Source of the DNA: Candidatus Kapaibacterium sp.
Lineage (GTDB): Bacteria > Bacteroidota > Ignavibacteria > Kapaibacteriales > NICIL-2
Assembly: GCA_040398805.1 (NCBI GenBank)
Contig: JBBATK010000010.1
Location: 18,113-82,112, forward strand
DNA length: 64,000 bases
Reading direction: 5' to 3'
A program made the position numbers and the translations under genes. The notes beneath the pieces are model-generated. The model was given only the letters and a program-made list of their open reading frames with translations, was not told the origin of the DNA and ran no database searches. Below are positions 5,406 to 63,745 of the stretch, piece by piece (positions within the stretch are counted from its first letter, which is position 1; each line of letters starts with the position of its first letter).

Positions 5406-5476
5406 GCTCGTGTTCGTCGCTCTTGACTGTGTTCAACGCCATCGCCGAAGGAAGCGCTCCGGCATATACCACACCA

Positions 5477-7069: not shown

Positions 7070-7210
7070 TGCGCAAGTTACGACGGTCGAAATGGTGCAA
7101 TGGCGCAGGAACATTTTTTTTCGGCACACTCATCGTGCCCGTAGATTCGTCGTGTTCAGAGTGCGTCGGAACGCACGTGCCGGTGAACCGACATCTTTTC
7201 CCTCTCGTCC

Positions 7211-8527
7211 ATGTATACCGAATCGACAAAGCTTCAACAGGAAACCGCGATCGTCATCTCCGTGGGGCGAAAAGGTGAGGACCGAGCTCTCGTCCGCGAG
7301 CATCTCGAAGAACTCGTCTTTCTGGCGGAAACGGCACAGGTATTCGTTGCGGAGACGATGATCCAGGAACGCGTCTCGCCGGACGTGGCCACCTACATCG
7401 GCAAGGGGAAGGTCCAGGAACTCAAGGAACTCGTGGAACAGCACGATGCCCACGTCGTCCTTGCCGACGACGAACTATCGCCCGTACAGATACGGAATCT
7501 GGAACGCGAACTGAATGTGAAAGTGCTCGACCGCAGCGCTCTGATCCTCGACATCTTCGCCACGCGCGCACGGTCCCTGGAGGCCAAGACCCAGGTGGAG
7601 CTAGCGCAGTTGCAATATCTCATGCCGCGCCTTTCACGCATGTGGACACACCTTTCCAAGCAGTACGGGGGTGTCGGCACGAAGGGGCCGGGAGAAACCC
7701 AGATAGAAAGCGACCGCCGGATGATCCGCTATCGCATCCAGCGGCTGAAAGAGAAACTGCGTGACATCGACGTCCAACGGAAAGAACAACGGAAACAGCG
7801 GGGAGCGCTCACGCGCTTCGCCCTTATCGGTTATACGAATGCGGGTAAATCCACGCTCATGAACGTGATGACGGATGCCAAGGTGTACACGGAAGACCAG
7901 CTCTTCGCCACCTTGGACACGACAGTACGCCAACTTGAACTGCCTGCGGGCACCATCGCTTTGCTCTCCGACACCGTCGGGTTCATTCGTAAGCTTCCCG
8001 CACACCTCATCGCGTCGTTCCGTTCCACCCTGGCGGAGTCCATGGAAGCGGACATGCTCATCCATGTCGTGGATGTCAGCCACCCTGCCTTCGCGGAACA
8101 CATGGCGGTGGTCGATGAGACCCTGAAAGAACTTCATGCCGAGCAGAAACCGCTCGTGCTCGTGTTCAACAAGGTTGATGCGGTGGAGGATAAGGACCTG
8201 CTAGAAACGCTCGCGCATGAGTATCCCGATGCCATCCAGCTATCGGCGCAAAAAGGACTCAACGTCCGGTCGCTTCTTCGCCGCATGCAGGAATTCTGCG
8301 ACTCCTGCGCCGATGTCGTGGAACTCTTTCTTCCCTTCTCCGCCATGAACAAGGTGGCGGCGCTATATACGACGGCGGAAGTGATCGAGCGTCGGGATGA
8401 GGACGAAGGCGTGTACATGAAGGTGCGGGTACCGCCACCTCAACAGAAATTGATGGAATCGACGTATGGCGAGTATATTCGTGCACACGAGACGGCCGAG
8501 CCGGCTGTCGTCAACGTGGATGCCTGA
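7211..8527 (+). CDS. hflX: GTPase HflX
   Basis: G1 motif GYTNAGKST, DTVGF, NKVD. Length and N-terminal HflX domain are typical. Confidence 0.9.
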   Translation: MYTESTKLQQETAIVISVGRKGEDRALVREHLEELVFLAETAQVFVAETMIQERVSPDVATYIGKGKVQELKELVEQHDAHVVLADDELSPVQIRNLERELNVKVLDRSALILDIFATRARSLEAKTQVELAQLQYLMPRLSRMWTHLSKQYGGVGTKGPGETQIESDRRMIRYRIQRLKEKLRDIDVQRKEQRKQRGALTRFALIGYTNAGKSTLMNVMTDAKVYTEDQLFATLDTTVRQLELPAGTIALLSDTVGFIRKLPAHLIASFRSTLAESMEADMLIHVVDVSHPAFAEHMAVVDETLKELHAEQKPLVLVFNKVDAVEDKDLLETLAHEYPDAIQLSAQKGLNVRSLLRRMQEFCDSCADVVELFLPFSAMNKVAALYTTAEVIERRDEDEGVYMKVRVPPPQQKLMESTYGEYIRAHETAEPAVVNVDA

Positions 8528-8575
8528 CCCTCCGTCAGGTTATGGACGTCCTTCTTCTCTTCGTAAACAGCGCTC

Positions 8576-8740
8576 ATGAACTTCGTGTATCTGATCATCG
8601 TCACCGTGCTCGTGTTTTTCGTCACGGTCGCCCTCGTCGTCATCGGACAAGAAATCAGCGTGTTGCTGGCCATCGCGTTGTTCGCCGGACTCGTCTACGG
8701 CTCGCTCAAGCTCGTGTCGCGCCGACTGACGAAGCTCTGA
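8576..8740 (+). CDS. Small hydrophobic membrane protein (54 aa), not present in the ORF track
   Basis: ATG at 8576, TGA at 8738. Translation MNFVYLIIVTVLVFFVTVALVVIGQEISVLLAIALFAGLVYGSLKLVSRRLTKL has two predicted transmembrane helices and GC-rich third positions like neighbouring genes. Confidence 0.35.
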   Translation: MNFVYLIIVTVLVFFVTVALVVIGQEISVLLAIALFAGLVYGSLKLVSRRLTKL

Positions 8741-8742
8741 CG

Positions 8743-9228
8743 TCAGACCTTTTGACCGCATCGCACGACGAACACGGGACACACCGCTTTGCGCAAAACC
8801 TGTTCCGTGGTGCTTCCCAGCACAAGGTGGTTCAACCCTGAGCGCCCGTGGGTGGAGAGGCAAATCATCGAGATATCAAGAGCCGCCGCGTACTCCGCTA
8901 TGACGTCCGACGGACGTCCCTCCCGGATCGCCCACTCCACCGCCAACCCCTCCGCCTTGAGGTCGCTCACCAGATTTGCCATGCGCTCCGTGGCCTGACC
9001 GCGCAGGCTTTGCATGACATCGAAATACACCGACTGCTCTATTCCGTCCGAACCCGAGAACAGTTCGAGTGGCTCGACCACGTATAAGAGATGGAGCGTG
9101 GAGGAGTACCGCTTCGCCAAGTCTACCGCATACGCGCGCGCATGCATCGAACATTCGGAGAAGTCCACCGGAAAAAGGATGGACGGGTAGGTTTTCTGTT
9201 CAGATGGCATGTCGGTTCTTCCTTTCAA
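8743..9228 (-). CDS. Universal stress protein (UspA family)
   Basis: ILFPVDFSECS...LLYVVEP...GSTTEQVLRKAVCPVFVV is the UspA ATP-binding fold pattern. Confidence 0.8.
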   Translation of the reverse strand: MKGRTDMPSEQKTYPSILFPVDFSECSMHARAYAVDLAKRYSSTLHLLYVVEPLELFSGSDGIEQSVYFDVMQSLRGQATERMANLVSDLKAEGLAVEWAIREGRPSDVIAEYAAALDISMICLSTHGRSGLNHLVLGSTTEQVLRKAVCPVFVVRCGQKV

Positions 9229-9355
9229 TGATACAAATCCATGTCTCGCGTTTCATCGCCGTCATCACCGTCCTGCATTCTCGTTGAGGACCTCCCTCGA
9301 AGGTGTTCCTTGGAGGACTTCCCTTGTTCGTGACGTCCGTCAGGCGCGCGCCGGC

Positions 9356-10891
9356 TTAGCGAGTGACGATGCCGCGGAGCGAGCGGACCGTTCCATCGTT
9401 CAGGTGCAGGGTCACGAAGTACACACCATGCGGAAGATCGGGGAACACTATCCGTTGACCTCCGGTTTCGGAACCTCTCTCGCAGTTACCGACCACGTCA
9501 CCACGCACATCATACACCAGCACGTGGCGGACGGCGGATGTGTTGCCGGTGTGGACGACAAGGTCGCCGTTCGATTCGCACACGACCCGCTCCTCGTCGC
9601 GCACCCGCCCCTCGTCCACGCTCGTGGATTTCACCGGCGTGACGGTAAGGATGAAGCGCGTGTTCGCATCACTGCCCACGTACAGACGTCCTTTGGCGTC
9701 CACGGTCAATCCTACCGGACGAGCCCAGCCCCATCCCGAGCTCCGTGTGGAGTCCGTCATGAAGCCCGTCAAAAAGTCCGCCGTGTAATTCGCCGTCGTA
9801 TCGTTCTCGTTGTCGAAATCAAGATAAATAATCTTCCCGCCGGTTGCCGGTGTGCGGTTCCATGATCCCCGGAGTGCCACGAACATCCCGTTCCTGAACG
9901 TCTGCGGCATGCTCGGATGAGCAGACACCAGGGCCATCGGCGCGCTGTGCGCCTGAATGAGACCCGCGGGTTGTACCATACTTGCCACGTTCGCCGAATC
10001 CTTCGCCGTTAACGGCAGCAAGGCACGATAGTCACCCGGTGATGACGAGCTCAAGGGAAAGAAGATTCCGTGGGAATGCGCATACGGGTATCCGTAGAAA
10101 CCTCCGTCGCGGACCACGTCGATCCACTCAGGAGGCACGTCGTTACCTTGACTGTCGCTTCCGTTGTTCGATGCCCAGACCCTGCCTCCGCGCAGGAGCA
10201 GTCCCACCGCATTCCTCGCCCCCGTGGCATAGGTCTTCCGTCCCGTGCCATCCGCGTTCCACTCTTCGATCAACGCTCGCTGATAATCCGTATCCCCGGG
10301 CTTCTCGGACCTGCACACGTTGCACAGCGAACCGATGGACAGATACACTTTGCTCCGCACGGTGTCGAAAAGGATGGTACGGGTGGTGTGACCGCCACCG
10401 GGCTGCGTCGCTCCCTCGGCTATGGGCGCAATGAAATCGCTTCGCGTCTCATACCGTCCGTCGTTGTCAAGATCCTGAAGGCGCACCACCGACCGCTCTT
10501 GGGCAGCGTACAGATCGCCACGATAGAAGGCGATGGAATGGGCGGTAACGTTCGTCGCCACCGCGATGATCGTATCGGCGATGCCGTCGTCGTTGCGATC
10601 CGGAAGCGCATAGATGGAACGCGCATCCAGATCGGCGATATGCAAGACGCCATCCGGACTCCACTCCATGAATCGAGGTTTCCTCAGTGCCGCACCGGCA
10701 TAGAACACGGACACCGTGAAGCCCTCAGGGACGTTCACCCGCGCAGTCGCCGGCAACACACCACGATACTTGACGGGCTGGTCGATGAGAACCGATGTCA
10801 AAGGGATCTGCTTGTACGGGGTCATGACCGGGACGTCCTGCGCAACCATCGACGTATAGACAACCAAGAAGACGAAGACGTTCTTTATCAT
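9356..10891 (-). CDS. PQQ-dependent soluble sugar (glucose/sorbosone-type) dehydrogenase beta-propeller with type-A T9SS C-terminal sorting domain
   Basis: Signal peptide MIKNVFVFLVVYTSMVAQ. sGDH-like propeller motifs (GDLYAAQ, RYETRSDFIAPI, HTTRTILFD, YGYPYAHS). C-terminal ...LVYDVRGDVVGNCERG...LPHGVYFVTLHLNDGTVRSLRGIVTR is CTD-like. Confidence 0.75.
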   Translation of the reverse strand: MIKNVFVFLVVYTSMVAQDVPVMTPYKQIPLTSVLIDQPVKYRGVLPATARVNVPEGFTVSVFYAGAALRKPRFMEWSPDGVLHIADLDARSIYALPDRNDDGIADTIIAVATNVTAHSIAFYRGDLYAAQERSVVRLQDLDNDGRYETRSDFIAPIAEGATQPGGGHTTRTILFDTVRSKVYLSIGSLCNVCRSEKPGDTDYQRALIEEWNADGTGRKTYATGARNAVGLLLRGGRVWASNNGSDSQGNDVPPEWIDVVRDGGFYGYPYAHSHGIFFPLSSSSPGDYRALLPLTAKDSANVASMVQPAGLIQAHSAPMALVSAHPSMPQTFRNGMFVALRGSWNRTPATGGKIIYLDFDNENDTTANYTADFLTGFMTDSTRSSGWGWARPVGLTVDAKGRLYVGSDANTRFILTVTPVKSTSVDEGRVRDEERVVCESNGDLVVHTGNTSAVRHVLVYDVRGDVVGNCERGSETGGQRIVFPDLPHGVYFVTLHLNDGTVRSLRGIVTR

Positions 10892-47849: not shown

Positions 47850-50714
47850 ATGGCTGAAAAAAGAGAAAACAAACTTTTCAAAGTTGCCTCTCAACTGAAC
47901 ATCGGTAAGGATGAGATCGTCGACTTCCTGAAAACCAAAGGTTTCTCTGTTGAGAACAAACCTACCGTGCAGCTCAGCGATGAAATGCTGGATGCGGTGT
48001 ATGATAAGTTCAGCAAAGAGGCGAAGCTTGTCGAAAAGCAACGCGAGAAGATCGAGAAGCACAAGACCGTGGCGCGGAAGACCGACGCCGCCGTCTCTCT
48101 GCGCAGTCGCGAGCAGGAACGCATCATGGAGCAGGAAGCCCGTGAAGCATCTGAGCGCCAAGAGCGCGAACGCATAGAGCGGGAGCGTCAGGAACGCGAA
48201 CAGGTGGAACGCGAAGCCCGGTTGGCAGTGCAGCGCGAACGTCAGGAACGCGAACAGGCGAAACTTGATGCAGCACGTGCCGCGGAGCAAGCGGCTACCG
48301 TGGCGGATCCTGTGGCCGCTGCTCCTGTAGAAGCGGCAGCACCCGCCGTTGAAGAAGCGCCGCCCGTGGCCGTCGACACACCGGCACCGGCCGTGGCGGC
48401 AGAGCCCGCTGCGCCGGAAGGCGAAGCAGCCACCGATGAAGACGCCTCCGACGGCACCGAAGAGATCGGCGAAGACGGTGTCAAGAAGAAACGCAAACGC
48501 AGAAACAACATCGTCATCACTTCCGAGCCCGGCTCACGTCCGCAACTGCGCGGCTTGACGGTGCTTGGCAAGGTGGACCTGCAACCCCCGCGGACATTCA
48601 GGCCCGCGGACAGGTCGCGGGACAAGGGCGGTCGCAGCGGCGACTCCCCCATCACCACGCCGATATCGGAGATCCGCATCGGCGCATTCGCCGGCGGCGG
48701 TCCCAGAGGTCCCGGCGGTTTCAAACGTCCGGACGCCAAGAAGGCACCGTTGACGAAGAAGGAGCTGGAACGCGAGAAGAAGAAGAAGCGCTCCATCAAG
48801 GAGCAGGTGGCGGAGGTGGACATCGACCGCGCCATCCGCGAGACGCTCTCCGGAAACGAAGAGGCGTCGCAAGCCCGGATGCGGAGTAAGATCAAGCAGA
48901 AGAAAAAGGACATCCGCGACGAGCGCGAACAGAAGCGTCAGGAGGAACTGCAACGCGAAAGCGGCATCCTTCGCGTGACGGAGTTCCTCACAACGGCGGA
49001 GCTCGCGAACTTCATGGGCGTATCGCCTGCGGAGATCATTACGAAGTGTTTCTCGCTCGGCTTGATGGTGAGCATCAACCAGCGTCTGGACAAGGAGACC
49101 ATCCAGCTCATCGCGGACGATTACGGGTACACGGTGGAGTTCATCACCGAAAAGGAGATCGACGTCGAAGCGGAGATCGTGGACGAACCCGACACCCTGG
49201 AAGCACGCCCGCCCATCGTGACGATCATGGGTCACGTGGATCACGGTAAGACCTCGCTCCTGGACTACATCCGCAGTGCCAATGTCGTTGCGGGTGAAGC
49301 AGGCGGCATCACTCAGCACATCGGTGCGTACAAGGTGGAGTTGCCGAACGGACGTGCCATCGCCTTCCTCGATACGCCGGGTCACGAAGCCTTCACGGCC
49401 ATGCGTGCCCGCGGTGCGCAGGTCACGGATATCGTCATCCTCGTGGTGGCGGCGGACGACAACGTCATGCCCCAGACCCTCGAGGCCATCAGCCACGCAC
49501 AAGCGGCGAACGTGCCGATGATCGTGGCCATCAACAAGATCGACAAGGAGAACGCCAATCCCGATAACATCCGTCAGCAGCTCGCCAACAACAACGTGCT
49601 CTTGGAGGAATGGGGCGGCAAGTATCAATCGGCGGAAATCTCCGCACGCAAGGGTATCAACATCGAGAAGCTTCTCGAGAAGGTGGTCCTGGAAGCGGAC
49701 ATGCTGGACCTGAAGGCCAATCCTCATCGTCCTGCCCGCGGTACCGTCATCGAGGCGCATGTGGACAAGGGTCGCGGAAACGTGGCCACCATCATGGTGC
49801 AAAAAGGCACCCTGCATGTGGGCGATGCCTTCCTTACCGGACAGTTCTTCGGTCGGGTCCGCGCCATGTTCGACGAGCGCGGTCACCGCGTGGAAGAGGC
49901 CGGTCCGTCCACACCCGTGCAAGTGACCGGATTCGATGGTCTGCCGGAGTCGGGCGACGTGCTGATCTCATCGGAGAACGACACATCCCTTCGCGAAGTG
50001 GCGATCCAACGTCAGATCCTCCGCCGCGAGCAACAGCTCCGTCAGGTGCGCCATATCACGCTGGACGATATCTCTGCACGCATCCAACAAGGCGGCGTGA
50101 AGGAGCTTCGCCTCATCATCAAGACGGACGTCAGCGGCTCGCTCGAAGCGCTCACCGACTCGTTGCTCAAGCTCTCGCGCGACGAAGTGAAGGTGCAAGT
50201 GATCCACCGCGGCGTGGGCACCATCACGGAAAGCGATGTGATGCTGGCCGCCGCATCGGACGCCATCATCATCGGCTTCCAGGTCACCGTCCCCACCTCC
50301 GTTCGCAAGCTTATCGAGAACGAACAGGTGGATGTCCGCCTGTACTCGATCATCTACGACGCCATCAACGAGGTCAAGCTCGCGCTCGAAGGTATGCTCT
50401 CTCCGGATATCAAGGAAGAGATCACGGGACGCGTCGAAGTACGTCAGGTGTTCAAGATCTCGCACGTGGGTCAGGTGGCGGGTTCGTATGTCCTCAGCGG
50501 TTCCATTCTGCGCAACGACAAGATCCGCTTGCTGAGAAACGGCTTCGAAATCTTCAAGGGCACCATCCAATCGCTGAAACATGTGAAGGAGGATGTCAAG
50601 GAGATGCGCTCCGGCTTCGAGTGCGGTATCACCATCAACGGCTTCAATGATTACGAGCCGGGAGACATCGTGGAAGCGTACAAGATCCTTGAAATAAAAC
50701 GCAAACTGTCGTAA
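47850..50714 (+). CDS. infB: Translation initiation factor IF-2
   Basis: [25 protein letters not shown]. Long E/R/Q/A-rich N-terminal region. Confidence 0.95.
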
Positions 50715-53332: not shown

Positions 53333-55549
53333 ATGTCTGTCAAAAGAGTTTCAACACTCATCAATGGCAAAGAGTACTCGATCGAAACGGGACGCTTTGC
53401 GAAGCTGGCGGACGGTGCGGTGATGGTGCGCTACGGCGATACCATGATGCTTGTCACTGTCTGTGCGGCACAAGAACCGAAGCCCGATATCGACTTCATG
53501 CCCCTGACCGTGGAGTACCGCGAGAAGTCGGCAGCGGCGGGCAAGATCCCCGGCGGATTCTTCCGCCGCGAGGGACGTCCTTCGGAAAAAGAGATCCTCT
53601 CGGCGCGTCTCATCGACCGCCCCATCCGCCCCATGTTCCCCGAGGGTTGGCGCTGCGACACGCAGATCATCGCCACGGTGTTCAGTGCGGATGACGAGAA
53701 CGAACCGAACTCACTCGGCATGACGGGCGCATCCTGCGCTCTCATGATCAGCAACGTGCCCTTCAACGGACCGGTCTCCGAGGTGCATGTGGGCCGCGTG
53801 GATGGCGAACTCGTCATCAACCCCACCTACAAGCAATTGGAAGTCTCCGACCTGGAGATCACCGTTGCCGGTACCGACGAATCCATCATGATGGTGGAAG
53901 GTGTGAGCAAGGAGATCAGCGAGGACGAGTTCCTCGAAGCTCTGGAGTTCGCCCACAAGAACATCCGCAAGCTCAATGCCTTGCAGCACGAGCTGGCAGC
54001 GATGATCAATGCCGTGAAGCGCGACGCCCCCGCACCCACGCGTCCCGAAGCCATCGAGACCGCGGTACGCGAGCACATCACCGGTAAGGTGCGTGCACAG
54101 CTCGCGAACCCCAGCACGAAGGACCAGCGCATCCTGTTCCGTCGTGCCTTGAAGGAAGAGACCATCGCGATGGTGAACGAGAAGTTCGGCACGCAGGAGG
54201 AATTCGCGGGCAAGGACTTCAAGAAACTCTGCGACGGTATCATCACCGACGTCGAGTACGAGGAAATGCGCGCGATGATCATCAAGGACGGTCGTCGCTT
54301 GGACGGTCGCGACACCACGACGATCCGTCCCATCACGTGCGACGTGGGCCTGCTGCCGCGCACGCACGGATCGGCCCTGTTCACACGTGGCGAAACGCAA
54401 TCGCTGACGACGGTGACCCTCGGCACGGCTCGCGACGAGCAGATCGTGGACGGCTTGCTGCCCACGTACGACCGTCACTACATGTTGCACTACAACTTCC
54501 CTCCTTTCAGCACGGGCGAAACGGGTCGTACCGGTGGCACAAGCCGCCGCGAGATCGGTCACGGCAACCTGGCCGAACGCGCGCTGCAACCCATGATGCC
54601 CGCGAAGGAGGACTTCCCTTATACCATCCGTATCGTTTCGGACATCCTTGAGTCCAACGGCTCGTCATCCATGGCCACCGTGTGCGCCGGTTCGCTTGCG
54701 TGCATGGACGCCGGACTTCCCCTGAAGAAGCAAGTGGCGGGTATCGCCATGGGCTTGATCAAGGAAGACAGCGCCATCGCTGTCCTCAGCGATATCCTTG
54801 GCGACGAGGATTATCTTGGTGATATGGACTTCAAAGTGGCGGGTACCACCGACGGTATAACCGCTTGCCAGATGGATATCAAGATCCAGGGCTTGTCCAT
54901 CGACATCATGCACAAGGCGCTGGAACAGGCCCGTGCAGGACGCATGCACATCCTTGGTGTGATGAACGGTACCATCGACGCACCGCGTGGCGACCTCTCG
55001 CCCTTCGCACCACGCCTCACCACCATCAAGATCCCCGTGGAGTTCATCGGTGCGGTCATCGGACCGGGCGGCGAGATGATCCGTTCCATCACGAAGGAGA
55101 CGAACACCGAGATCAACATCGAGGATGACGGTACCATCGTCATCGCAGCGGTGAAAGGTGAACACGCTCAAGCCGCCGTCGAGTGGATCATGGGCTTGAT
55201 CCGCATGCCCGAAGTGGGCACGGTGTATCAGGCGCGCGTGAAGGAAGTGCGCGAAGGTCTTGGCGCCATCATGGAGTTCCTGCCGAAGAAGCAGGGCTTG
55301 CTGCACATCTCGCAGATCGCGCACGAGCGCATCGAGAATGTCAGCGACGTCCTCAAGGCGGGCGACATCGTGGATGTGAAGCTCATCGAAGTGCAGCACG
55401 ACGGAAAGTTCCGCCTGAGCCGCAAGGCATTGATCCCCAGGCCCGAAGGCATGCCCGAGGAAGAGGAACGTCCGCGTCGCGAGCGCCCGCATGGCGACCG
55501 TCCGCGTGGCGGCGGTTACGACCGCGATCGTCGCGGTCCGCGTCGCTAA
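53333..55549 (+). CDS. pnp: Polyribonucleotide nucleotidyltransferase (PNPase)
   Basis: Two RNase PH domains, KH and S1. GDMDFKVAGT motif. Basic RG-rich C-terminal tail. Confidence 0.95.
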   Translation: MSVKRVSTLINGKEYSIETGRFAKLADGAVMVRYGDTMMLVTVCAAQEPKPDIDFMPLTVEYREKSAAAGKIPGGFFRREGRPSEKEILSARLIDRPIRPMFPEGWRCDTQIIATVFSADDENEPNSLGMTGASCALMISNVPFNGPVSEVHVGRVDGELVINPTYKQLEVSDLEITVAGTDESIMMVEGVSKEISEDEFLEALEFAHKNIRKLNALQHELAAMINAVKRDAPAPTRPEAIETAVREHITGKVRAQLANPSTKDQRILFRRALKEETIAMVNEKFGTQEEFAGKDFKKLCDGIITDVEYEEMRAMIIKDGRRLDGRDTTTIRPITCDVGLLPRTHGSALFTRGETQSLTTVTLGTARDEQIVDGLLPTYDRHYMLHYNFPPFSTGETGRTGGTSRREIGHGNLAERALQPMMPAKEDFPYTIRIVSDILESNGSSSMATVCAGSLACMDAGLPLKKQVAGIAMGLIKEDSAIAVLSDILGDEDYLGDMDFKVAGTTDGITACQMDIKIQGLSIDIMHKALEQARAGRMHILGVMNGTIDAPRGDLSPFAPRLTTIKIPVEFIGAVIGPGGEMIRSITKETNTEINIEDDGTIVIAAVKGEHAQAAVEWIMGLIRMPEVGTVYQARVKEVREGLGAIMEFLPKKQGLLHISQIAHERIENVSDVLKAGDIVDVKLIEVQHDGKFRLSRKALIPRPEGMPEEEERPRRERPHGDRPRGGGYDRDRRGPRR

Positions 55550-55591
55550 ACGCACTGCACGTCAACGCGAACAACCTTTCGCAAAAAACAC

Positions 55592-55628
55592 CACCCTCGC
55601 ATGGAATCCATGCGAGGGTGTTTTGTTT
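55592..55628 (+). terminator. Rho-independent terminator after pnp
   Basis: Perfect 13-bp stem CACCCTCGCATGG / CCATGCGAGGGTG with an AAT loop, followed by TTTTGTTT. Confidence 0.8.
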
Positions 55629-56211
55629 ATCAAGGCTTTTTCACGAGTACCACGCCGTACGAGCTGAACGAGAACTACTGCGGATTCGCCTGCATGAACG
55701 TCCTATACTGAATCGCATCAAGGTGCCGTCATAGGCGCTTACGCTCAAGGAACTGGTTCCAAGGTAATCCGCATTCTGGGTACGGATTTCTCGTCTCTCA
55801 CCCGGCAATCAGCCATGTCAAAACAAGACAATTTTCGTTCAGTTCGATGTTGTCCTTGTCCCACAGATTATCCCCGTTTCATCAAATCCCGAGGCACCCT
55901 CGTTGATACATTCCCCGACATACTCATCATCTCTCTATCCAGCCGTCTCATACGATACGATCTGCTATATTTTCATCCCGCGATATTTTCTCATTTTTTT
56001 GTGTAAGTTGCTTTACGGCTAGTCAGGGTTCTTTTTTTCGAAGCACTAGATATTCCCTTAACAACTTTCGCGAATCTGCGCTTTACCTCTTGCCCGTCAT
56101 CTATCGGTCATCGTTGGCATATTATTCGTCTCTTCCGCTTTTTAAACTTCTGTTATTTCTGCGAGACAATTTCTGACGAACAACGTTTTTAAACATTTTT
56201 TGGGTGGTTTT

Positions 56212-56814
56212 ATGAAAACATTGGCCCTTAGCCTCCTGACATTACTTTGCTTTTTCACGACCCCCTCCGCGCGAGCCCAATGTCCACCGGGATGGACGAC
56301 AGCAACTCCCACCTTCGTCATAAACCCTTCCTGCTCGATTACCGTTACCATTTGTTATATCTGCTCTCCAAGCGGCGGGTCCCCGACTACCATTCTTATC
56401 GCTGGTTGGTACCAATCCAGTCCTTGCTCGGGAGTGGATTTCGGGAATGATTTTATTGTCTCACTTTTCATCCAACACTACGACAGTTTTTGCACTATTA
56501 CCGATTGTCGTTCTGGATGTACGGATTTCATAGTGGACATCCCCGCTTGTCGTCAATGGTATTACAACTATAATCCCCCTTTGCCTCTTTTTTATTGGTG
56601 GGAACCATGTTCATCCAGTTCAAAACATTGCACTGTCACAACGAGTATCTGCCGTGATTCACAGACCGGGTCCATAATTGAATGCGGTTCTCGCAGTTAT
56701 GGTAGTTATGGCATTTCATGTGCCACGGCCATCCCGCCACCATCCGGAACGCCCTCGCCTTCAGGAAACCATATACCCTACGGTGTTTGTAATGCTGGAG
56801 ATTCGTGTCCTTGA
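56212..56814 (+). CDS. Cysteine-rich (24 Cys) small secreted protein, no recognised family
   Basis: Signal peptide MKTLALSLLTLLCFFTTPSARA. Mature protein about 180 aa with paired Cys spacings and a PPPSGTPSPSG linker. Local GC is about 10-15% below the flanks. Confidence 0.5.
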   Translation: MKTLALSLLTLLCFFTTPSARAQCPPGWTTATPTFVINPSCSITVTICYICSPSGGSPTTILIAGWYQSSPCSGVDFGNDFIVSLFIQHYDSFCTITDCRSGCTDFIVDIPACRQWYYNYNPPLPLFYWWEPCSSSSKHCTVTTSICRDSQTGSIIECGSRSYGSYGISCATAIPPPSGTPSPSGNHIPYGVCNAGDSCP

Positions 56815-56953
56815 TAAGGTTTTGTGAACGTGAGTGTGAGGATATTGCGTCGTAGATCGGAGCAATTGTCGACTGCCTCTCATTATTCAACGACTCGGCC
56901 GGCGCAAAGACATAGTAGCTGTCTATCACTTTCCAGGTTTTCATATTTCTTTA

Positions 56954-59509
56954 TTGCTCACTTCCATGTTTTTCTTCTACTTATTCATTTTTGAGCTTGT
57001 ATGCAGCTCTCAATTATGGTCCAGTCCTGTTTCTGGAGACATGACATATTTGACCACAGACTATAAAGGTGTCGCGTCGAACGGCTCCACAGTCTTGAGT
57101 TATGGTACTCATGGTATCATACTAAGGTCAACCGATAAGGGAGCGTCGTGGTTCAGAACGTCAATCGGAAATGACAATGATGTCATTCGCATTGATACGA
57201 TCAACTCTTCGTATGTAGCACTCACGAGGTCCGGTTTGCTGAGATCCGACGACAATGCCTCGACGTGGACTCGCACGGCCATTGAGAATGGAGTGGATAT
57301 GTGTCGTGACAAAGACACCATCTATGTCCTCACGAAATACGCTATCGTTCGTACGACATTCTCGCGTATGGCTGACATCAGCACGCTCGTGAGCATGGAT
57401 TCCACGGTGAGTGCTCGATCCATCGTTGCCTCGGCGCGAGGAAGTCTTCACTGGATAGAGGACAACAGATATGTACGCCACTATTCCTTATCGTCCAAGA
57501 CATCCACAGCGACCGACGTACTTTCGCTCAACCAGTGTCCTACCTGCTACAGAATCGATGGATTGCAGCAAAACATGGGCAAACTGTACGTCGCTATCGT
57601 CAACACGAGAAACAATCCCGTTGGTGCCCTGCCTTTCGAATTCTATCAGGTATATATGTCTCCCAACCTAGGATCGTCATGGCAGCGATACTCGGCGGTT
57701 GACTCATTCGATGAAAACACTCTGGGAACAGCGAACTTCAAAGTCGTCAGCGATAGTCAGATTATCGCGTTACGAACAAAGGTACTGCCGCAAAGCGTGT
57801 ACATCCCGGCACCTGATACGCTGAACAGGAAGTTACATCAGTGGTTTGTCGGTATCGAGTATCTTTCGTTCAATAACTCCGGCACTTCCAGTATCATCAA
57901 TCCCGACGATACCATCCCGGAGCGCTATGCCTTATCGTCGGACCTACGCCTGAACTCTCTTCTGGATTTGGGTAATGGTATCATCGTTGCCAATGGCAAC
58001 AATCATTGCATTGTCCGAAGCACCGACAATGGTCGGTCATGGCAACTTCAGTCGTACTTTCCTAACGACGCAGTTTATTCCACGCCATTTTTCCGCGGCG
58101 TGGATTCAAACCATCTCTATATGCCGTGCGCACAAGGGGCGTTTTATCGGACCGACAACGCAGGGTTAACGATTCTCCCCCAACGCTTCCAATTCTATCC
58201 GCAGTATCTAGCCAAGGGTGCGGGCGTCGTGTTTTCGCACTACGACAGTAGCGGACATGGGTGCGTGATAATTCAAGCCGGACTGGAGCTTGATTCGAAC
58301 GTATTTATCACGAACGACTTCGGTGAAACGTATTCGCCAGTAGGCGTACTACCTTTATTTAATGTTTTTGCGTCAGACTCTGTTCAAAGGACGAAGTACC
58401 GGCTAACGAACATCATGATTCGCAATGAGGTGGAAACCGATACGGTCTTCCTGCTAGCCGGCACACCGACATATGTTGATGCCAATAACACGTTACAGCG
58501 CTATCCGTACAGTGTCGTGATACGCCTCAACAAACAGTATGGGCTTATTGACACGGTGGCTTTGCCGGTATCGAAAGTGGCGATGTTGATCCGAGCGGGA
58601 CGATTGGTGTATTTGTTCGGCACGAACGGGGAGGACCTATCATACAAGCGAAATGTAGCGGACCTCGTGTTCCCGACGTATGCGATATATCGGAGTATTG
58701 ATGATGGACGGACGTGGGAATCTGTCTCGACCTCCTTACCCATACCTAACGAATATGTCAAGGTAGGACAGCAGTACGCTGCAGTCGTACCGGATTTCAG
58801 ACCGGCCATTGTCTTCGACAGTACTCTCGTCGTCAGTACGGGTCAACGTCGCCTCCTCATCTATTCAAAGGATAAAATGAGACCGGATTCGTTGCATCTG
58901 CCTTTCGATCAGAATCTGCTGTATCTCGGAGAAACCATGATAAGCTCCGATAATGCACTCGCTATAGCGTCAATCGACGGCAAACTATTCAGCACTGCGC
59001 TTATTGAGGATGACAAAACCGTCTGGGATTCCAGCCCTCTACAGTCAGGATTGTCGTGGGACGGCCCACGTCTTCGTTTGCAAAGATTCATTCCCGTTTC
59101 AGATAATACCGGCTTTACGGTTACCGGTGAGTACAAAGACACGGACCGTAAATACAAGACGCATCTGTTACGTTATTCATTGAACATCCCGATTTCGGAT
59201 GTCAAGGAAGACGTTCGCACTCTTCGTTTGTGGGAATCCTTGCCGTACCCGCAGCCCGCTCGACACACCGTGATGACCAGGATCTACTGGGACAAGCCGT
59301 GTTCACTTCAAGATCTGGAGATTTCTCTTTTCGATTTCGTCGGTATCCTCGTTGACGGTGATACCCATTCCAGTAGGATTGCAATAACCGCGGTTGATGA
59401 GATCAGTGCATCTCTCGCCGTTGATTGTAACGGGTTGACACCGGGCGTCTATTTCATCCGAGTCCGGTTGAGGAATTCCGATAGAACGATTCCGTTCGTC
59501 GTGCAATAA
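56954..59509 (+). CDS. BNR/Asp-box repeat beta-propeller protein (sialidase-/Ycf48-like fold) with type-A T9SS C-terminal sorting domain
   Basis: Asp-box repeats STDKGASW, SDDNASTW, STDNGRSW, SIDDGRTW. CTD ...GLTPGVYFIRVRLRNSDRTIPFVVQ. Low GC. Likely true start a few codons in (MFFFYLFIF... signal). Confidence 0.7.
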   Translation: MLTSMFFFYLFIFELVCSSQLWSSPVSGDMTYLTTDYKGVASNGSTVLSYGTHGIILRSTDKGASWFRTSIGNDNDVIRIDTINSSYVALTRSGLLRSDDNASTWTRTAIENGVDMCRDKDTIYVLTKYAIVRTTFSRMADISTLVSMDSTVSARSIVASARGSLHWIEDNRYVRHYSLSSKTSTATDVLSLNQCPTCYRIDGLQQNMGKLYVAIVNTRNNPVGALPFEFYQVYMSPNLGSSWQRYSAVDSFDENTLGTANFKVVSDSQIIALRTKVLPQSVYIPAPDTLNRKLHQWFVGIEYLSFNNSGTSSIINPDDTIPERYALSSDLRLNSLLDLGNGIIVANGNNHCIVRSTDNGRSWQLQSYFPNDAVYSTPFFRGVDSNHLYMPCAQGAFYRTDNAGLTILPQRFQFYPQYLAKGAGVVFSHYDSSGHGCVIIQAGLELDSNVFITNDFGETYSPVGVLPLFNVFASDSVQRTKYRLTNIMIRNEVETDTVFLLAGTPTYVDANNTLQRYPYSVVIRLNKQYGLIDTVALPVSKVAMLIRAGRLVYLFGTNGEDLSYKRNVADLVFPTYAIYRSIDDGRTWESVSTSLPIPNEYVKVGQQYAAVVPDFRPAIVFDSTLVVSTGQRRLLIYSKDKMRPDSLHLPFDQNLLYLGETMISSDNALAIASIDGKLFSTALIEDDKTVWDSSPLQSGLSWDGPRLRLQRFIPVSDNTGFTVTGEYKDTDRKYKTHLLRYSLNIPISDVKEDVRTLRLWESLPYPQPARHTVMTRIYWDKPCSLQDLEISLFDFVGILVDGDTHSSRIAITAVDEISASLAVDCNGLTPGVYFIRVRLRNSDRTIPFVVQ

Positions 59510-59939
59510 AGGATGTGCGGCGCACGCTGCTGTTTTTCTGTGATCGGCTCTTCGATGTGCACGACATTCACGTTTGTCACTGCCCGCATACTCCGTGCCA
59601 TGAGATCTGCCATTCGTCGCCAGCCGATGTAAAGGTTACCGACGCACCTCCTCCACACGATGGCGCTTGACAATCAATCGGACTCTCTCCCCTCTCTCAC
59701 AGCTTGTAACAACGAGGCTGCCTCCGATTCGTCGTATGGCTCGTCATCGATTCGGGTTGCACATGTTGACCTCACGGAGAAGGATAGTGATCGTCGTCGC
59801 CTCCATCGAAGTAGACAACATGTGTGAATCGGCGGCGGTCTCGGAAGGCGCGCACGCATGATTCCAAACGCCGGACCCTGCTGTTCATGCTTTGGTCGGT
59901 GGCATTTGAATGATGATGGAGACGTTCAGTACCAGCTCC

Positions 59940-61337
59940 CTACTTCCCATCCCCGAGCAACACGACGTTCGCGCGCTTCTTCACCGTCTTGCATGCATTG
60001 CGGGTATCCACGACGACCTTGCTGTTCTTGACGATGAGTTCCATGTCGAACACAGAGTGATCGGTGGTGATGCACACGACGTCGTAGGACTTCAGCTGTG
60101 CAGGTGTGAGGGATTTGATGGAGCGTATCACACGCTGATTCTTCTTGCCGTGATGCAAGGCAACGGCAGTAATGTAGGGATCGTAATACGAGATGTTCGT
60201 GATGCCGTCCGCATCGAGCAGTTCCGCCACTTTCAAGGCGGGAGAGTGACGCAGGTCGTCGACGTCTTTCTTGAAGGCCATGCCGAGCAGCAGCACCTTC
60301 GCCTTCTTCAGGGTGACGGGTTGTTTGGCGATTTCGCGCTCGATCATGGAGCGCACGTAGAAGGGCATCGACTCGTTCACTTCGGCGGCAAGCTCGATGA
60401 AGTTCGTCACGAAGTCGTATTCACGCGCCATCCACGACAGGTAGTACGGGTCGATCAAGATGCAATGTCCGCCGATGCCGGGTCCGGGAAAGAACGGCAT
60501 GAACCCGAAGGGCTTTGTCGCCGCGGCCTCCACCACTTCCCAGATGTTCACCCCTATGCGGTCGCACAGCTGTGCCAGCTCGTTCACCAGCGCGATGTTC
60601 ACACTGCGGAAGATGTTCTCGAGAAGCTTCTCCATCTCCGCCACTTCGGGGGTGGAGACGGGAATCACTTTCGAAATGATGAGCTCGTTCACCGCCACCG
60701 CAAGCTTCGTGCAAACAGGCGTGATACCGCCTACCACGATGGGTGTGTTGCCCGTGTGCCAGGTGGTGTTGCCGGGATCGATGCGTTCGGGCGAGAAGGA
60801 CAGGAAGTAGTCGCGACCGCACACGAGTTTCGTTTCATCGAGAATGGGTTGCACGTATTTGCGCGTGGTTCCGGGAAAGGTGGTGCTCTTCAGGATGACG
60901 AGCGTGCCGTTCTTCATGGAGGCGGCGACGGCGCGGGTGGACTCCACGATGTGCGAGATATCGGGATCTTTATTGTCGGTGAACGGCGTCGGCACGCAGA
61001 TGTAAATCACATCGCATTCGGCGCAGCGACCGAAGTCCGTCGTCGCACTGAAGGTCTTGTCCTTCCAAATCGAGTGGATGCGCTCGTCGGCGATGTCTTG
61101 GATATAATTCTTTCCCTTCTGCAACAGCGCCACCTTCTCCGTGCTCACATCGATACCGATGGTCCGGATACCCAGAGAGGCGAACTCCACGGCCAGGGGT
61201 AAGCCCACGTAGCCCAAGCCCACCACACCGACGGTGCAGGACTTGGAGGCGATGGCCTGCATGAGCCGGTCGGCAGGAGACGCGGTCTTGGCACCTGATG
61301 CCGATTTCGTTGTGCGTTTCTTCACTGTGTCAGCCAT
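59940..61337 (-). CDS. Nucleotide-sugar dehydrogenase (UDP-N-acetyl-D-glucosamine / mannosamine 6-dehydrogenase family)
   Basis: Rossmann VGVVGLGYVGLPLA. Catalytic Cys region GGHCIL. UDP-binding C-terminal domain. Start at MADTVKK. Confidence 0.85.
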   Translation of the reverse strand: MADTVKKRTTKSASGAKTASPADRLMQAIASKSCTVGVVGLGYVGLPLAVEFASLGIRTIGIDVSTEKVALLQKGKNYIQDIADERIHSIWKDKTFSATTDFGRCAECDVIYICVPTPFTDNKDPDISHIVESTRAVAASMKNGTLVILKSTTFPGTTRKYVQPILDETKLVCGRDYFLSFSPERIDPGNTTWHTGNTPIVVGGITPVCTKLAVAVNELIISKVIPVSTPEVAEMEKLLENIFRSVNIALVNELAQLCDRIGVNIWEVVEAAATKPFGFMPFFPGPGIGGHCILIDPYYLSWMAREYDFVTNFIELAAEVNESMPFYVRSMIEREIAKQPVTLKKAKVLLLGMAFKKDVDDLRHSPALKVAELLDADGITNISYYDPYITAVALHHGKKNQRVIRSIKSLTPAQLKSYDVVCITTDHSVFDMELIVKNSKVVVDTRNACKTVKKRANVVLLGDGK

Positions 61338-61430: not shown

Positions 61431-62444
61431 TCAACGTCCGCCGTAGTTCTTTTCGTAATACGACCTGTACTCGCCGCTGCGGACCTTGTCCACCCATGCG
61501 CTGTTGTCACGGTACCATTGCACCGTGCTGCTAAGACCTTCCTCGAAGCGCACCAGGGGCGTCCATCCCAGCTCCTGTTCGGCTTTCGTGCAATCGATGG
61601 CATAGCGTCGGTCGTGACCCGGCCGGTCCGCCACGGTGCGCATGAGCGACTCGGGCTTCTCCACCCTCTTCAGAATGCCTTTCACCACCTCGATGTTCGC
61701 CCGCTCGCTGCGACCGCCGAAATTATACACCTCGCCGGAGCGACCTTTCGTGAAGGCGGCCCAGATGCCGCGGCAGTGGTCATCCACATGGATCCAATCG
61801 CGCACCTGAAGGCCGTCGCCATACACGGGCAACGGTTCGTTGCGCATGGCGTTGGATATCATGAGCGGAATGAGCTTCTCGGGGAACTGATAGGGTCCGT
61901 AGTTGTTACTGCATCGCGTCACGACGGCGTCGAGACCGTGCGTATGGACGAACGCCCGCACGAACAGGTCCGCTCCCGCCTTCGAAGCGCTGTACGGGGA
62001 ATTCGGCGCTAGCGGCGTCTCTTCCGTGAACGCACCCGTGGGTCCGAGCGATCCGTACACTTCGTCGGTGGACACCTGAAGATAGCGCTTGATGCCGCGG
62101 GCTCGCGCTGCTTCGAGTAGGACAAGGGTGCCGCCGATGTTCGTCTTCAGAAAGGGCTCGGCCGAGAGGATGGAACGGTCCACATGACTTTCCGCGGCGC
62201 AATGGATGATGCCCGTGATGCCGTGTTCTGCTATGAGCGACTCCACGCAGGCGGCATCGGTGATGTCGCCATGGACGAAGGTGTACCGCTCATGATGCTC
62301 GACGTCACGAAGGTTGCTGAGGTTTCCCGCGTAGGTAAGGGCGTCGAGATTTACGATATGCGCCTCGGTATGATGCAAGAGGAAGCGAACAAGGTTCGAT
62401 CCGATGAAACCGGCTCCGCCGGTAAGCAATATCCTCTGGTCCAT
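61431..62444 (-). CDS. rfbB: dTDP-glucose 4,6-dehydratase
   Basis: ILLTGGAGFIGSN, YSASKAGADLFVRAF (YxxxK), extended SDR. Start at MDQRILL. Confidence 0.9.
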   Translation of the reverse strand: MDQRILLTGGAGFIGSNLVRFLLHHTEAHIVNLDALTYAGNLSNLRDVEHHERYTFVHGDITDAACVESLIAEHGITGIIHCAAESHVDRSILSAEPFLKTNIGGTLVLLEAARARGIKRYLQVSTDEVYGSLGPTGAFTEETPLAPNSPYSASKAGADLFVRAFVHTHGLDAVVTRCSNNYGPYQFPEKLIPLMISNAMRNEPLPVYGDGLQVRDWIHVDDHCRGIWAAFTKGRSGEVYNFGGRSERANIEVVKGILKRVEKPESLMRTVADRPGHDRRYAIDCTKAEQELGWTPLVRFEEGLSSTVQWYRDNSAWVDKVRSGEYRSYYEKNYGGR

Positions 62445-62509
62445 GAGTAAGCTCTGAGATTGACTGTGGAAATCCTGACTACCAAACGATTCCGCTTCGA
62501 CCTGCGCCG

Positions 62510-63745
62510 TCAATGGACGTGACCTTCCGTGTCCGCAGGTTCTTTTTCCGCCTTCACACTATCAAACGGCGTTCCAATTATCTCCGCCAAGCGCGACTGC
62601 ACCTGCCATTCATGGCGAAGGGCCCGGTACTGTTCCAGCGCCTGTTCGCGATGACGCACAGGAACATCGCTCTTCTCGGCTTTGATCATGATGTTCTTCA
62701 TCGTGTGCTCCTGCGCCACGAACTCGATGAGCTCCGCCGAGTAGCCGTTGCTGCGCAGAATCTCGCGACGCATGGTATCGGTGATCATGTCGGCGATGCG
62801 CTCCCGCACGATTCCGTCCCGAAGCAGCGGCGCATTCGTCTCGCGCACCTTGGCAGACGTCAGCTGGGCATTGACGAAGTGGTGACAGCAGGGTGCGGCG
62901 AAAATGGCTCGCGCGTTCCGCCGGATTGCCAGGGCCAAGGCATCATCGGTGGCGGTGTCGCAGGCGTGCAGAGCGAGGAGCACGTCGATGTCCTCCGGTG
63001 CCTGGTACTCCGCTATGGGCGAGCAGACGAAGGTGCAGTAGGGCATGTCCAGGGCCGCGGCCGTGGCGGTGCACCACGCGATCAACTGCTCGTTGGCATC
63101 GATGCCGACAAGCCGGACGTCGCATCCGCGCTCGGTTTTCAGGTAATACGCCAATGCCAAACTCAGATAGGCCTTGCCGCATCCGGCATCGACGATGCGC
63201 AAGGATGGCGCATCGAACACGGACGAGGAGAGCATGAGGTTCATGGCATGATTCACCTGACGGAACTTGGCGCTCATCGTGGGGATGGTCTCACCCGTCT
63301 CCGTCACGAATCCCAAGGCACGAAGCAGCGCAAAGGCATTGTCGTTGCGCAGGTACGCTCGCTTCTTGCCCGGTTGCTCAGGAGTGGTGTCCCACGAGGA
63401 TTTCGACGGACGTGTCGTCCGACGCAAGACGCTTTTCTTCGTCGCCTTGACATACACATCCTTCTGCGGCGTCTGCACGTGCGCTTGGGAGAAACCCTGC
63501 CCGACCATCACGCCGATCGTTTCGGCCACCACCGCCGCATCGTAGGCAAAGGTCCGGGTGGTATGCTGCTTCTGCGTGAAGGTCTCCACGCCGACAACGG
63601 CATCGTCGCCCGCTCCCGTGCATCGCAGCACCACGCGCAGGGGCGATCCCGTCTCCGCATCACGCTGACGCATGCCGCTGAAGGTACACACCCATGGTGA
63701 ACCGCTAAGGTGTGAAAGAAGGTCTTCTGCGGGTAGATGTGTCAT
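62510..63745 (-). CDS. Class I SAM-dependent methyltransferase
   Basis: Motif I IVDAGCGKAYLSLALA and motif II region VGIDANEQLI. Start at MTHLPAEDLL. Confidence 0.6.
   Translation of the reverse strand: MTHLPAEDLLSHLSGSPWVCTFSGMRQRDAETGSPLRVVLRCTGAGDDAVVGVETFTQKQHTTRTFAYDAAVVAETIGVMVGQGFSQAHVQTPQKDVYVKATKKSVLRRTTRPSKSSWDTTPEQPGKKRAYLRNDNAFALLRALGFVTETGETIPTMSAKFRQVNHAMNLMLSSSVFDAPSLRIVDAGCGKAYLSLALAYYLKTERGCDVRLVGIDANEQLIAWCTATAAALDMPYCTFVCSPIAEYQAPEDIDVLLALHACDTATDDALALAIRRNARAIFAAPCCHHFVNAQLTSAKVRETNAPLLRDGIVRERIADMITDTMRREILRSNGYSAELIEFVAQEHTMKNIMIKAEKSDVPVRHREQALEQYRALRHEWQVQSRLAEIIGTPFDSVKAEKEPADTEGHVH

Follow-up and report, generated by a model that had tools for sequence, protein, structure and literature searches.

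Cassette exchange through recombination in conserved flanks is known from the switching of capsule and O-antigen loci, from "flexible genomic islands" and from gene-specific sweeps. In an unrelated context, the sortilin/VPS10 domain combines an Asp-box beta-propeller with cysteine-rich 10CC modules. Here, we describe a locus that can be compared with both. It lies in a stretch of 64,000 nucleotides (nt) from the assembly GCA_040398805.1 of Candidatus Kapaibacterium sp., a member of the Kapabacteria within the FCB group (contig JBBATK010000010.1, positions 18,113 to 82,112 of the forward strand), the whole of which is referred to below as the window. Between two convergent core genes, from the stop of pnp (55549) to the stop of ugd (59940), the window carries an accessory cassette with two genes, the first for a secreted cysteine-rich (Cys-rich) protein and the second for a BNR/Asp-box beta-propeller protein. 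The cargo of this cassette is an undescribed, conserved two-gene secreted module, and the best overall explanation of the locus, in which we have good though not complete confidence, is that a cassette with this module has been spread by recombination in its flanks.

Exchange of the cassette with a sister species

Both genes are found at the same position in a sister species, here called species B, which is represented by the metagenome-derived loci L002, L003, L093-L102 and L104. The flanks of the cassette are 79.2% identical to those of species B on either side, over 9.2 kb to the left and 1.06 kb to the right, the neighbouring essential genes pnp, ribF and that for S15 sharing ~79% of their DNA sequence, and between these flanks the identity rises abruptly to the near-identity of the exchanged tract (Table 1). 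Both steps lie inside conserved flanking genes, as is characteristic of cassette exchange by homologous recombination. The pnp product is 95% identical to that of species B at the amino acid (aa) level, yet the 3' end of the gene is identical, with the last 45-155 nt included in the exchanged tract, and the last 230 nt of ugd (59940-60169) are part of the same tract. The left junction is polymorphic, the last flank-type mismatch being located at 55393, 55465, 55477 or 55504 across the species-B assemblies, and the right junction is fixed, with the first flank-type mismatch at 60170 in all nine species-B loci that reach the end of ugd, out of 11 aligned. Across the eleven aligned loci, one recurrent set of 12-14 differences separates species B from the window. 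This pattern shows that the cassette has recently moved between the window lineage and a 79%-identical sister species by a double homologous crossover in pnp and ugd.

The location of the crossovers in the core flanks explains why no integrase, tRNA or repeats mark the ends of the cassette. No tRNA was found in 48-64 kb, no direct or inverted att-like or terminal repeats of note flank the island, and no integrase or recombinase is present among the genes identified in or beside it, the Cys-rich and propeller genes being the only genes of the island; a reading of the locus made earlier from sequence alone (the sequence-only reading), which saw neither integrase nor tRNA at the boundary, was right in this respect. 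The locus fits a classical integrative genomic island only in part: compositional deviation and patchy presence among close relatives are observed, but a recombinase gene, a tRNA site and flanking direct repeats are all missing.

The cassette is compositionally foreign to the 58% GC genome in which it resides. In the quantitative profile of the window, the 1-kb windows within 55.6-59.6 kb have a GC content of 0.453-0.505, compared to a mean of 0.583 (sd 0.024, minimum 0.515) in the remaining 233 windows, which places the island 3.3 to 5.4 sd under the mean; the island as a whole has a GC content of ~49%. At third codon positions (GC3), the contrast is stronger, with 0.45 in the Cys-rich gene and 0.57 in the propeller gene vs 0.71-0.80 in six flanking genes. 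The fall begins right 3' of the pnp terminator, whose hairpin starts 43 nt beyond the pnp stop, and GC climbs back from ~59.6 kb, toward the convergent ugd, epimerase/dehydratase and methyltransferase genes. The profile is thus far from uniform, and the drop after the terminator, the perfection of the terminator itself and the recovery at the nucleotide-sugar genes all stand as they were described in the sequence-only reading.

The closest relatives of the pnp protein are found in metagenome-assembled genomes (MAGs) labelled Candidatus Kapaibacterium, Chlorobiota or Bacteroidota. The nearest genomes share the order ribF-rpsO-pnp, gap, and convergent ugd-epimerase-methyltransferase. Because the content of the gap differs among congeners while the flanking order is kept, the slot at 55550-59939 is a variable region of the genus. 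In four congeners (L004, L005, L007 and L035; pnp ~87% identical), the slot is occupied by a gene for a ~300-aa secreted PD40 (TolB-like) protein, followed by variable extras that include a glyoxalase-like protein, a TrmA-like methyltransferase, an IS200-like Y1 transposase with repeats resembling repetitive extragenic palindromes (REP), and a DUF4919 protein. Homology between the window and these four congeners ends at the pnp stop and restarts at the ugd stop, and a remnant of the PD40 gene was looked for in the window and not found. The question raised earlier, whether pnp is followed directly by the ugd operon in relatives, therefore has a clear answer: in the four congeners, the slot holds the PD40 gene and its extras instead. 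The same two genes as in the window occur in the genus in one sister species only, where their near-identity is itself the signature of transfer, and the earlier suggestion of horizontal acquisition is borne out by the GC3 contrast, by the different gene in the four congeners and by the 99.7% identity of the tract as against 79% in its flanks.

Content within the slot also varies in species B. The variants L002 (at a contig end) and L094 depart from the window at 59531, 21 nt 3' of the propeller stop, and L094 carries at 6451-9735 an extra gene, on the opposite strand, for a 782-aa protein with a sub-threshold match to Por_Secre_tail, a C-terminal domain (CTD) of type IX secretion system (T9SS) cargo; this additional CTD-like gene implies that the slot keeps acquiring T9SS cargo genes. 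In congeners, L007 (16081-17907) and L005 (13508-14469) contain REP-like tandem repeats, in which open reading frames (ORFs) read MGLLFNAWVCCSTHGFVVQR..., together with the IS200-like Y1 transposase, and this combination looks like a REP-associated tyrosine transposase (RAYT)/REP system. To the right of ugd, the epimerase/dehydratase and methyltransferase genes (window 61431-63745, minus strand; L003 12909-15162) are ~70% identical to those of species B at the nt level, and their products 75% and 62% identical; given the 79% nt identity on the pnp side, these nucleotide-sugar genes may constitute a second fast-evolving or exchanged region.

Table 1. Features of the cassette and its flanks (window coordinates; a dot denotes no strand)
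Feature	Position	Strand	Remarks
pnp (polynucleotide phosphorylase), left core flank	53333..55549	+	Pfam RNase_PH (two), KH, S1
Left recombination junction zone	55394..55505	.	inside the Arg/Gly-rich tail of pnp
Recently exchanged tract	55505..60169	.	4666 nt, 99.68% identical to species B, non-coding stretches included
pnp intrinsic terminator	55592..55620	+	perfect 13-bp stem, 3-nt loop, T-run; bidirectional in form
Non-coding CT-rich spacer	55621..56211	+	591 nt, GC 44%, no credible ORF
Secreted Cys-rich protein gene	56212..56814	+	200-aa precursor; predicted signal peptidase I cleavage between ARA and Q
BNR/Asp-box beta-propeller protein gene	56966..59509	+	847 aa; alternative TTG start at 56954 gives 851 aa
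Intergenic region, propeller gene to ugd stop	59510..59939	.	GC 55%; inside the exchanged tract
Terminator-like hairpin and T-run	59517..59533	+	directly 3' of the propeller gene
ugd (UDP-glucose/GDP-mannose dehydrogenase family), right core flank	59940..61337	-	Pfam

The stretch preceding the Cys-rich gene had been described as a 650-nt non-coding leader. It is indeed non-coding, with no ORF above 63 aa and no Rfam match, although somewhat shorter than stated (Table 1); its role as a leader is unproven. The spacer is the least conserved part of the exchanged tract, with 5-6 of the 14-15 positions at which species B differs, and, since it also lacks a match to any RNA family, it presumably carries the promoter of the module rather than a structured leader. 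An Rfam search of the whole cassette produced two chance-level matches only. When the spacer and the other intergenic stretch of the island were compared with the fetched loci and the rest of the window, a single weak match emerged, to L059 by tblastx (E 0.003). Neither gene is preceded by the Bacteroidetes -7 promoter motif TAnnTTTG, and sigma-70 sites are no more numerous in a scan than expected by chance.

Two observations concern the left flank. The C-terminal tail of PNPase (window 55445-55549) is rich in Arg, Gly and Asp (…RPRRERPHGDRPRGGGYDRDRRGPRR), and its coding sequence includes a 15-nt tandem repeat; the tail differs in length among relatives, and three of the four left-junction positions (55465, 55477 and 55504) fall within it. 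Further upstream, the stretch 48000-49000 combines an unusually high AT skew (0.41) with a GC content of 0.635 and a dip in identity to species B to 0.65; the conserved gene order of L103 and L104 places it within the IF-2 gene, probably in the variable N-terminal region.

The conserved two-gene module

The mature Cys-rich protein consists of 177 aa, close to the ~180 aa given in the sequence-only reading, and starts with QCPPGW, as read there; it contains 16 cysteines (17 in the precursor), not the 24 counted at first, and a conserved CxxC motif. The earlier verdict of "no recognisable family" holds for curated libraries: neither the protein nor its family matched anything consistently in Pfam, NCBIfam, PHROGs or PADLOC. 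It has to be amended in that an exhaustive search of 1.84 billion proteins revealed a rare conserved family of 36 representatives, always paired with a propeller gene where this could be assessed; a word-indexed protein search, with the protein alone or with the family alignment, returned only the query's own cluster, and a metagenome scan with a narrowed alignment yielded two loci. The family members share the signal peptide, a mature start that is usually QCPPGW after A, the CxxC motif and eleven near-invariant cysteines. In Bacteroidetes, substrates of signal peptidase I with an AxA-type site carry Gln at +1 of the mature protein, the so-called Q-rule (PMC5837995). The signal peptide of the window protein, as read from the sequence, ends in SARA and is followed by QCPPGW, so that Gln is predicted at +1, and most of the 36 members have A-Q-C at the same place. 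A T9SS CTD and a lipobox are both absent from the protein, and the possibility that it is a lipoprotein was rejected, the residue at -1 before the Cys being Q, E, D, N or A, which does not form a lipobox.

An AlphaFold2 model built from the 36-sequence alignment is confident (pLDDT, the predicted local distance difference test, 90; pTM, the predicted template modelling score, 0.81) and shows a compact alpha/beta domain, in which residues 79-92 form a single long helix. The protein has no sequence relative in the PDB and the model has no neighbour among solved structures, and the fold is probably a new one. A thioredoxin-like role of the CxxC motif was rejected, as the motif is located at the end of a beta-strand and no helix follows. 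In the second strain of the window species, L103, the Cys-rich gene starts with GTG, and not ATG, at window position 56212; the public gene call of L103 misses this gene and contains a spurious antisense ORF of 102 aa in its place (window 56636-56944, minus strand).

The propeller protein, for which the sequence-only reading gave 851 aa (the length from the TTG start), contains three exact SxDxGxxW Asp-boxes and three degenerate ones. Among domain profiles, Sortilin-Vps10 matches with 41.4 bits vs a cut-off of 33, but the alignment is limited to profile positions 3-111 of 446, and the BNR match is sub-threshold in Pfam. The Asp-boxes were thus correctly recognized, and the type-A T9SS CTD proposed along with them is less certain in the window protein itself: its C-terminus scores 20.0 bits with Por_Secre_tail (cut-off 27) and 17.5 with TIGR04183 (cut-off 23). 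The domain is clearer in homologues, with six of nine family members matching (best E 6e-6) and the C-terminal 90 aa conserved. At the N-terminus, the window protein has the hydrophobic sequence MFFFYLFIFELVCSS before Q, without a basic n-region, whereas the homologues have canonical signal peptides starting with MKK. Five full-length homologues are 38-43% identical to it. The AlphaFold2 model, derived from 6 sequences, is all-beta and poor (pLDDT 57), and because of this its best fold matches, the tandem propellers BT3049 and BT4673 with a template modelling (TM) score of only ~0.2, indicate architecture only; on these grounds the protein is probably a tandem propeller. Related contigs carry PorZ and other CTD proteins. 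Elsewhere in the window, a 1360-aa ORF (1353-5432, minus strand) with IgGFc_binding and ASH/HYDIN-type Ig-like domains weakly matches a hidden Markov model of the propeller-family CTD (E 0.017) and may encode another surface or T9SS protein.

The association of the two genes is conserved. In all six informative loci (the window, L082, L086, L088, L090 and L091/L092), that is, those where DNA downstream of a member of the Cys family is available, the Cys gene is located directly upstream of a propeller homologue, with a gap of 42-216 nt and a propeller homologue of 826-850 aa. The members of the pairs have diverged alike, with 28-41% identity among the Cys proteins and 24-43% among the propellers, and the genomic neighbourhoods differ. 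Because the Cys gene always immediately precedes a propeller homologue, the two products most likely act together, to judge from this arrangement of the genes. A propeller gene does not strictly require this partner: the homologues on L083 and L084 are not accompanied by a gene of the Cys family in the DNA available.

A different view of the cargo was implied by the sequence-only reading, in which the propeller was a sialidase-, glycosidase- or Ycf48-like scaffold and the Cys-rich protein was considered a possible lectin, toxin or defensin-like effector. In its current form, this view holds that the propeller is a secreted sialidase or a glycosidase of the glycoside hydrolase family 74 (GH74) type and the Cys-rich protein an unrelated effector, the two being uncoupled neighbours. 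Apart from the presence of Asp-boxes, it can draw on weak matches to the GH74 xyloglucanase 2cn2 (E 0.002 over ~70 residues) and to PDB sialidases (E about 0.1, ranging from 0.06 to 0.6), the latter over ~20 residues around one Asp-box. These matches are confined to single Asp-box blades, no BNR_2 match at E <= 0.1 was found in the Pfam scan of the window protein, which leaves it without a match to the catalytic domain of GH33 sialidases, and BNR_2/GH33 is absent from the families listed for nine aligned propeller homologues. Membership in Ycf48 itself lacks support, given 23.7 bits with PSII_BNR (cut-off 27), 24 with NF010237 (cut-off 326) and a length of 847 aa as compared to the ~330-aa single 7-bladed propeller. 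Since the matches do not extend beyond single Asp-box blades, membership of the propeller protein in GH74, the sialidases or the Ycf48 family is not supported. The public names of the protein in MAGs are "Photosynthesis system assembly factor" (MFM2134137.1) or "WD40/YVTN/BNR-like repeat-containing protein", and the former is an artefact of the Ycf48/BNR repeats. On the side of the putative effector, no defensin, lectin or toxin family matches the Cys family by sequence or fold, and such a role is unsupported; adjacency kept in six of six loci across 24-43% sequence divergence argues for coupling of the genes. Altogether, we regard a glycosidase with an uncoupled effector as unlikely.

Under the preferred reading of a conserved module, the Cys-rich protein would be exported by the Sec pathway, cleaved by signal peptidase I with Gln at +1 and, once in the periplasm, folded oxidatively to give a compact alpha/beta domain that up to 8 disulfides hold together. 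The propeller protein would likewise follow the Sec pathway and then cross the outer membrane by T9SS through its C-terminal domain, to be displayed on the surface or released as a glycan-binding or glycan-cleaving protein. The Cys-rich protein could be its partner subunit, a periplasmic escort or, possibly, a co-exported passenger. A bolder extension, which we offer tentatively and would not expect to hold in full, is that the Cys-rich protein adopts a new fold stabilised by disulfides and is obligately partnered with a tandem propeller exported by T9SS, being carried out, for example, while bound to this CTD-bearing partner, and that the pair forms an unrecognised two-component surface or secreted system, the selective value of which drove it across ~21% divergence.

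Direction of transfer and alternative histories

The ends of the core genes that travelled with the cassette point to the direction of the last transfer. The last 76 codons of ugd have a GC3 of 0.776 in both the window and species B, compared to 0.80 in the window and 0.575 in species B for the rest of the gene. In the pnp stretch 55394-55504, GC3 is 0.757 in the window and L002 and 0.568 in L003, which has the B-type allele there; the four outgroups show no rise of GC3 at 3' gene ends. Furthermore, L103 shares 4 of 14 "B-specific" states, which implies that the B allele nests within the diversity of the window species. Because the co-transferred ends of ugd and pnp carry window-type GC3, we infer, from base composition, that the last transfer proceeded from a window-type, high-GC lineage to species B. 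An earlier import from an unsampled source would have brought the lower-GC module into the window lineage, so that the proposed history runs from this import, through the window lineage, to the double crossover into species B. GC is 28-39% in the remaining hosts of the module. Within the window species, diversity amounts to 0.39% in the cassette vs 1.08% in the flanks (Fisher p = 1e-5), which suggests recent gene-specific spread.

The opposite direction, in which the cassette is native to species B and was imported into the GC-rich window lineage, would by itself explain the compositional break. The core genes of species B have a GC content of 0.49-0.54 and a GC3 of 0.49-0.62, and the values of the cassette (49% and 0.45-0.57) resemble them. 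Nevertheless, the window-type GC3 of the travelling gene ends, with no corresponding rise in outgroups, and the nesting of the B allele speak for the reverse, and we judge an origin in species B to be improbable. A composite history, in which an older import from a B-like source into the window lineage was followed by the recorded transfer from the window lineage to species B, may also be considered.

A chimera created in assembly or binning, with the cassette of one organism joined to the flanks of another by metagenome assemblers, deserves attention since all the sequences are metagenome-derived and the left junction differs between assemblies. However, the species-B arrangement, traced by its Cys-protein allele, was assembled independently from different samples by JGI, NCBI, ENA and Logan, on no fewer than 24 contigs, the recurrent differences and the common right junction described above also speak against a chimera, and the window-type arrangement is seen again in L001 (99.98% identity) and in L103 (99.1%). 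At the left junction of L002 and L094, no more than 11 bases (55394-55404) are the same in the window-type and native-B alleles, and a stretch of this length is insufficient for a k-mer join there. We therefore consider a chimera very improbable. Least probable of all is vertical inheritance, in which the common ancestor of the window species and its sister already had both genes, gene-specific bias accounts for the low GC and strong purifying selection for the identity: both species do have the genes at the same position, but the pattern of 79.2%, 99.68% and again 79.2% identity excludes vertical descent, the spacer, intergenic regions and synonymous sites being ~99-100% identical as well while pnp, ribF and S15 are at ~79%, the identity shifting abruptly inside coding sequences and the four next-closest genomes lacking the genes.

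Several points count against the reading that we prefer, a conserved two-gene secreted module spread by flank recombination. As regards the module, these are the sub-threshold CTD scores of the window protein, the poor model of the propeller, the missing match to a catalytic domain and the two propeller homologues without a Cys-family gene. As regards the transfer, sequences that differ by 21% are expected to recombine homologously only very rarely; the island has the same GC content (49%) as species B and the congeners, so that a B-like origin of the module before the transfer from the window lineage to species B is possible; and no homologue of 46-99% identity is present in the protein collections searched, the original donor being unsampled.

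Significance and comparison with known systems

The locus is a clean natural case of an accessory cassette crossing between 79%-identity species by homologous recombination in core flanks alone, and public metagenomes suffice to read where the junctions lie, which way the transfer went and how the populations vary. The gene pair, absent from the curated libraries searched, is a target for structural studies and for T9SS biology in the poorly studied Kapabacteria, and the pair makes it possible to address whether CTD-less proteins can leave the cell bound to T9SS cargo. Public entries that call the propeller a photosystem assembly factor are misleading.

With respect to its domains, the propeller protein can be compared to several described groups. 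Ycf48/HCF136, GH33 sialidases and GH74 xyloglucanases have SxDxGxxW Asp-boxes on propeller blades in common with it, but the scores are sub-threshold and cover one or two blades, and the window protein is 2.5 times the length of Ycf48. The T9SS type-A tandem propellers (such as PorZ) and the periplasmic sensor domains of the hybrid two-component systems (HTCS) BT3049 and BT4673 are comparable to it in its putative signal peptide, its ~750-aa all-beta body and its putative C-terminal Ig-like sorting domain. Unlike in these proteins, the repeats of the window protein are of the BNR/Asp-box type, PorZ_N_b_propeller and Reg_prop are absent from the Pfam tables for the window protein and its homologues, and a separate PorZ homologue is encoded on L083 beside a homologue of the window propeller. 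The association of a disulfide-rich module with an Asp-box propeller may be viewed as analogous to the arrangement in sortilin/VPS10.

With respect to the mode of transfer, the closest parallel is the switching of capsule and O-antigen loci. In both cases, a fixed slot has variable content, crossovers fall in the conserved flanks, and integrases, tRNAs and repeats are not involved; the flanks are more diverse than the cassette, and the slot adjoins nucleotide-sugar genes. What distinguishes the cassette from these loci is that its cargo is a two-gene module for secreted proteins, that it has crossed a DNA divergence of 21% and that its hosts are uncultured Kapabacteria. The mode of transfer is of a known kind; the novelty lies in the module, in its probable new fold and in the 21% divergence that was crossed.

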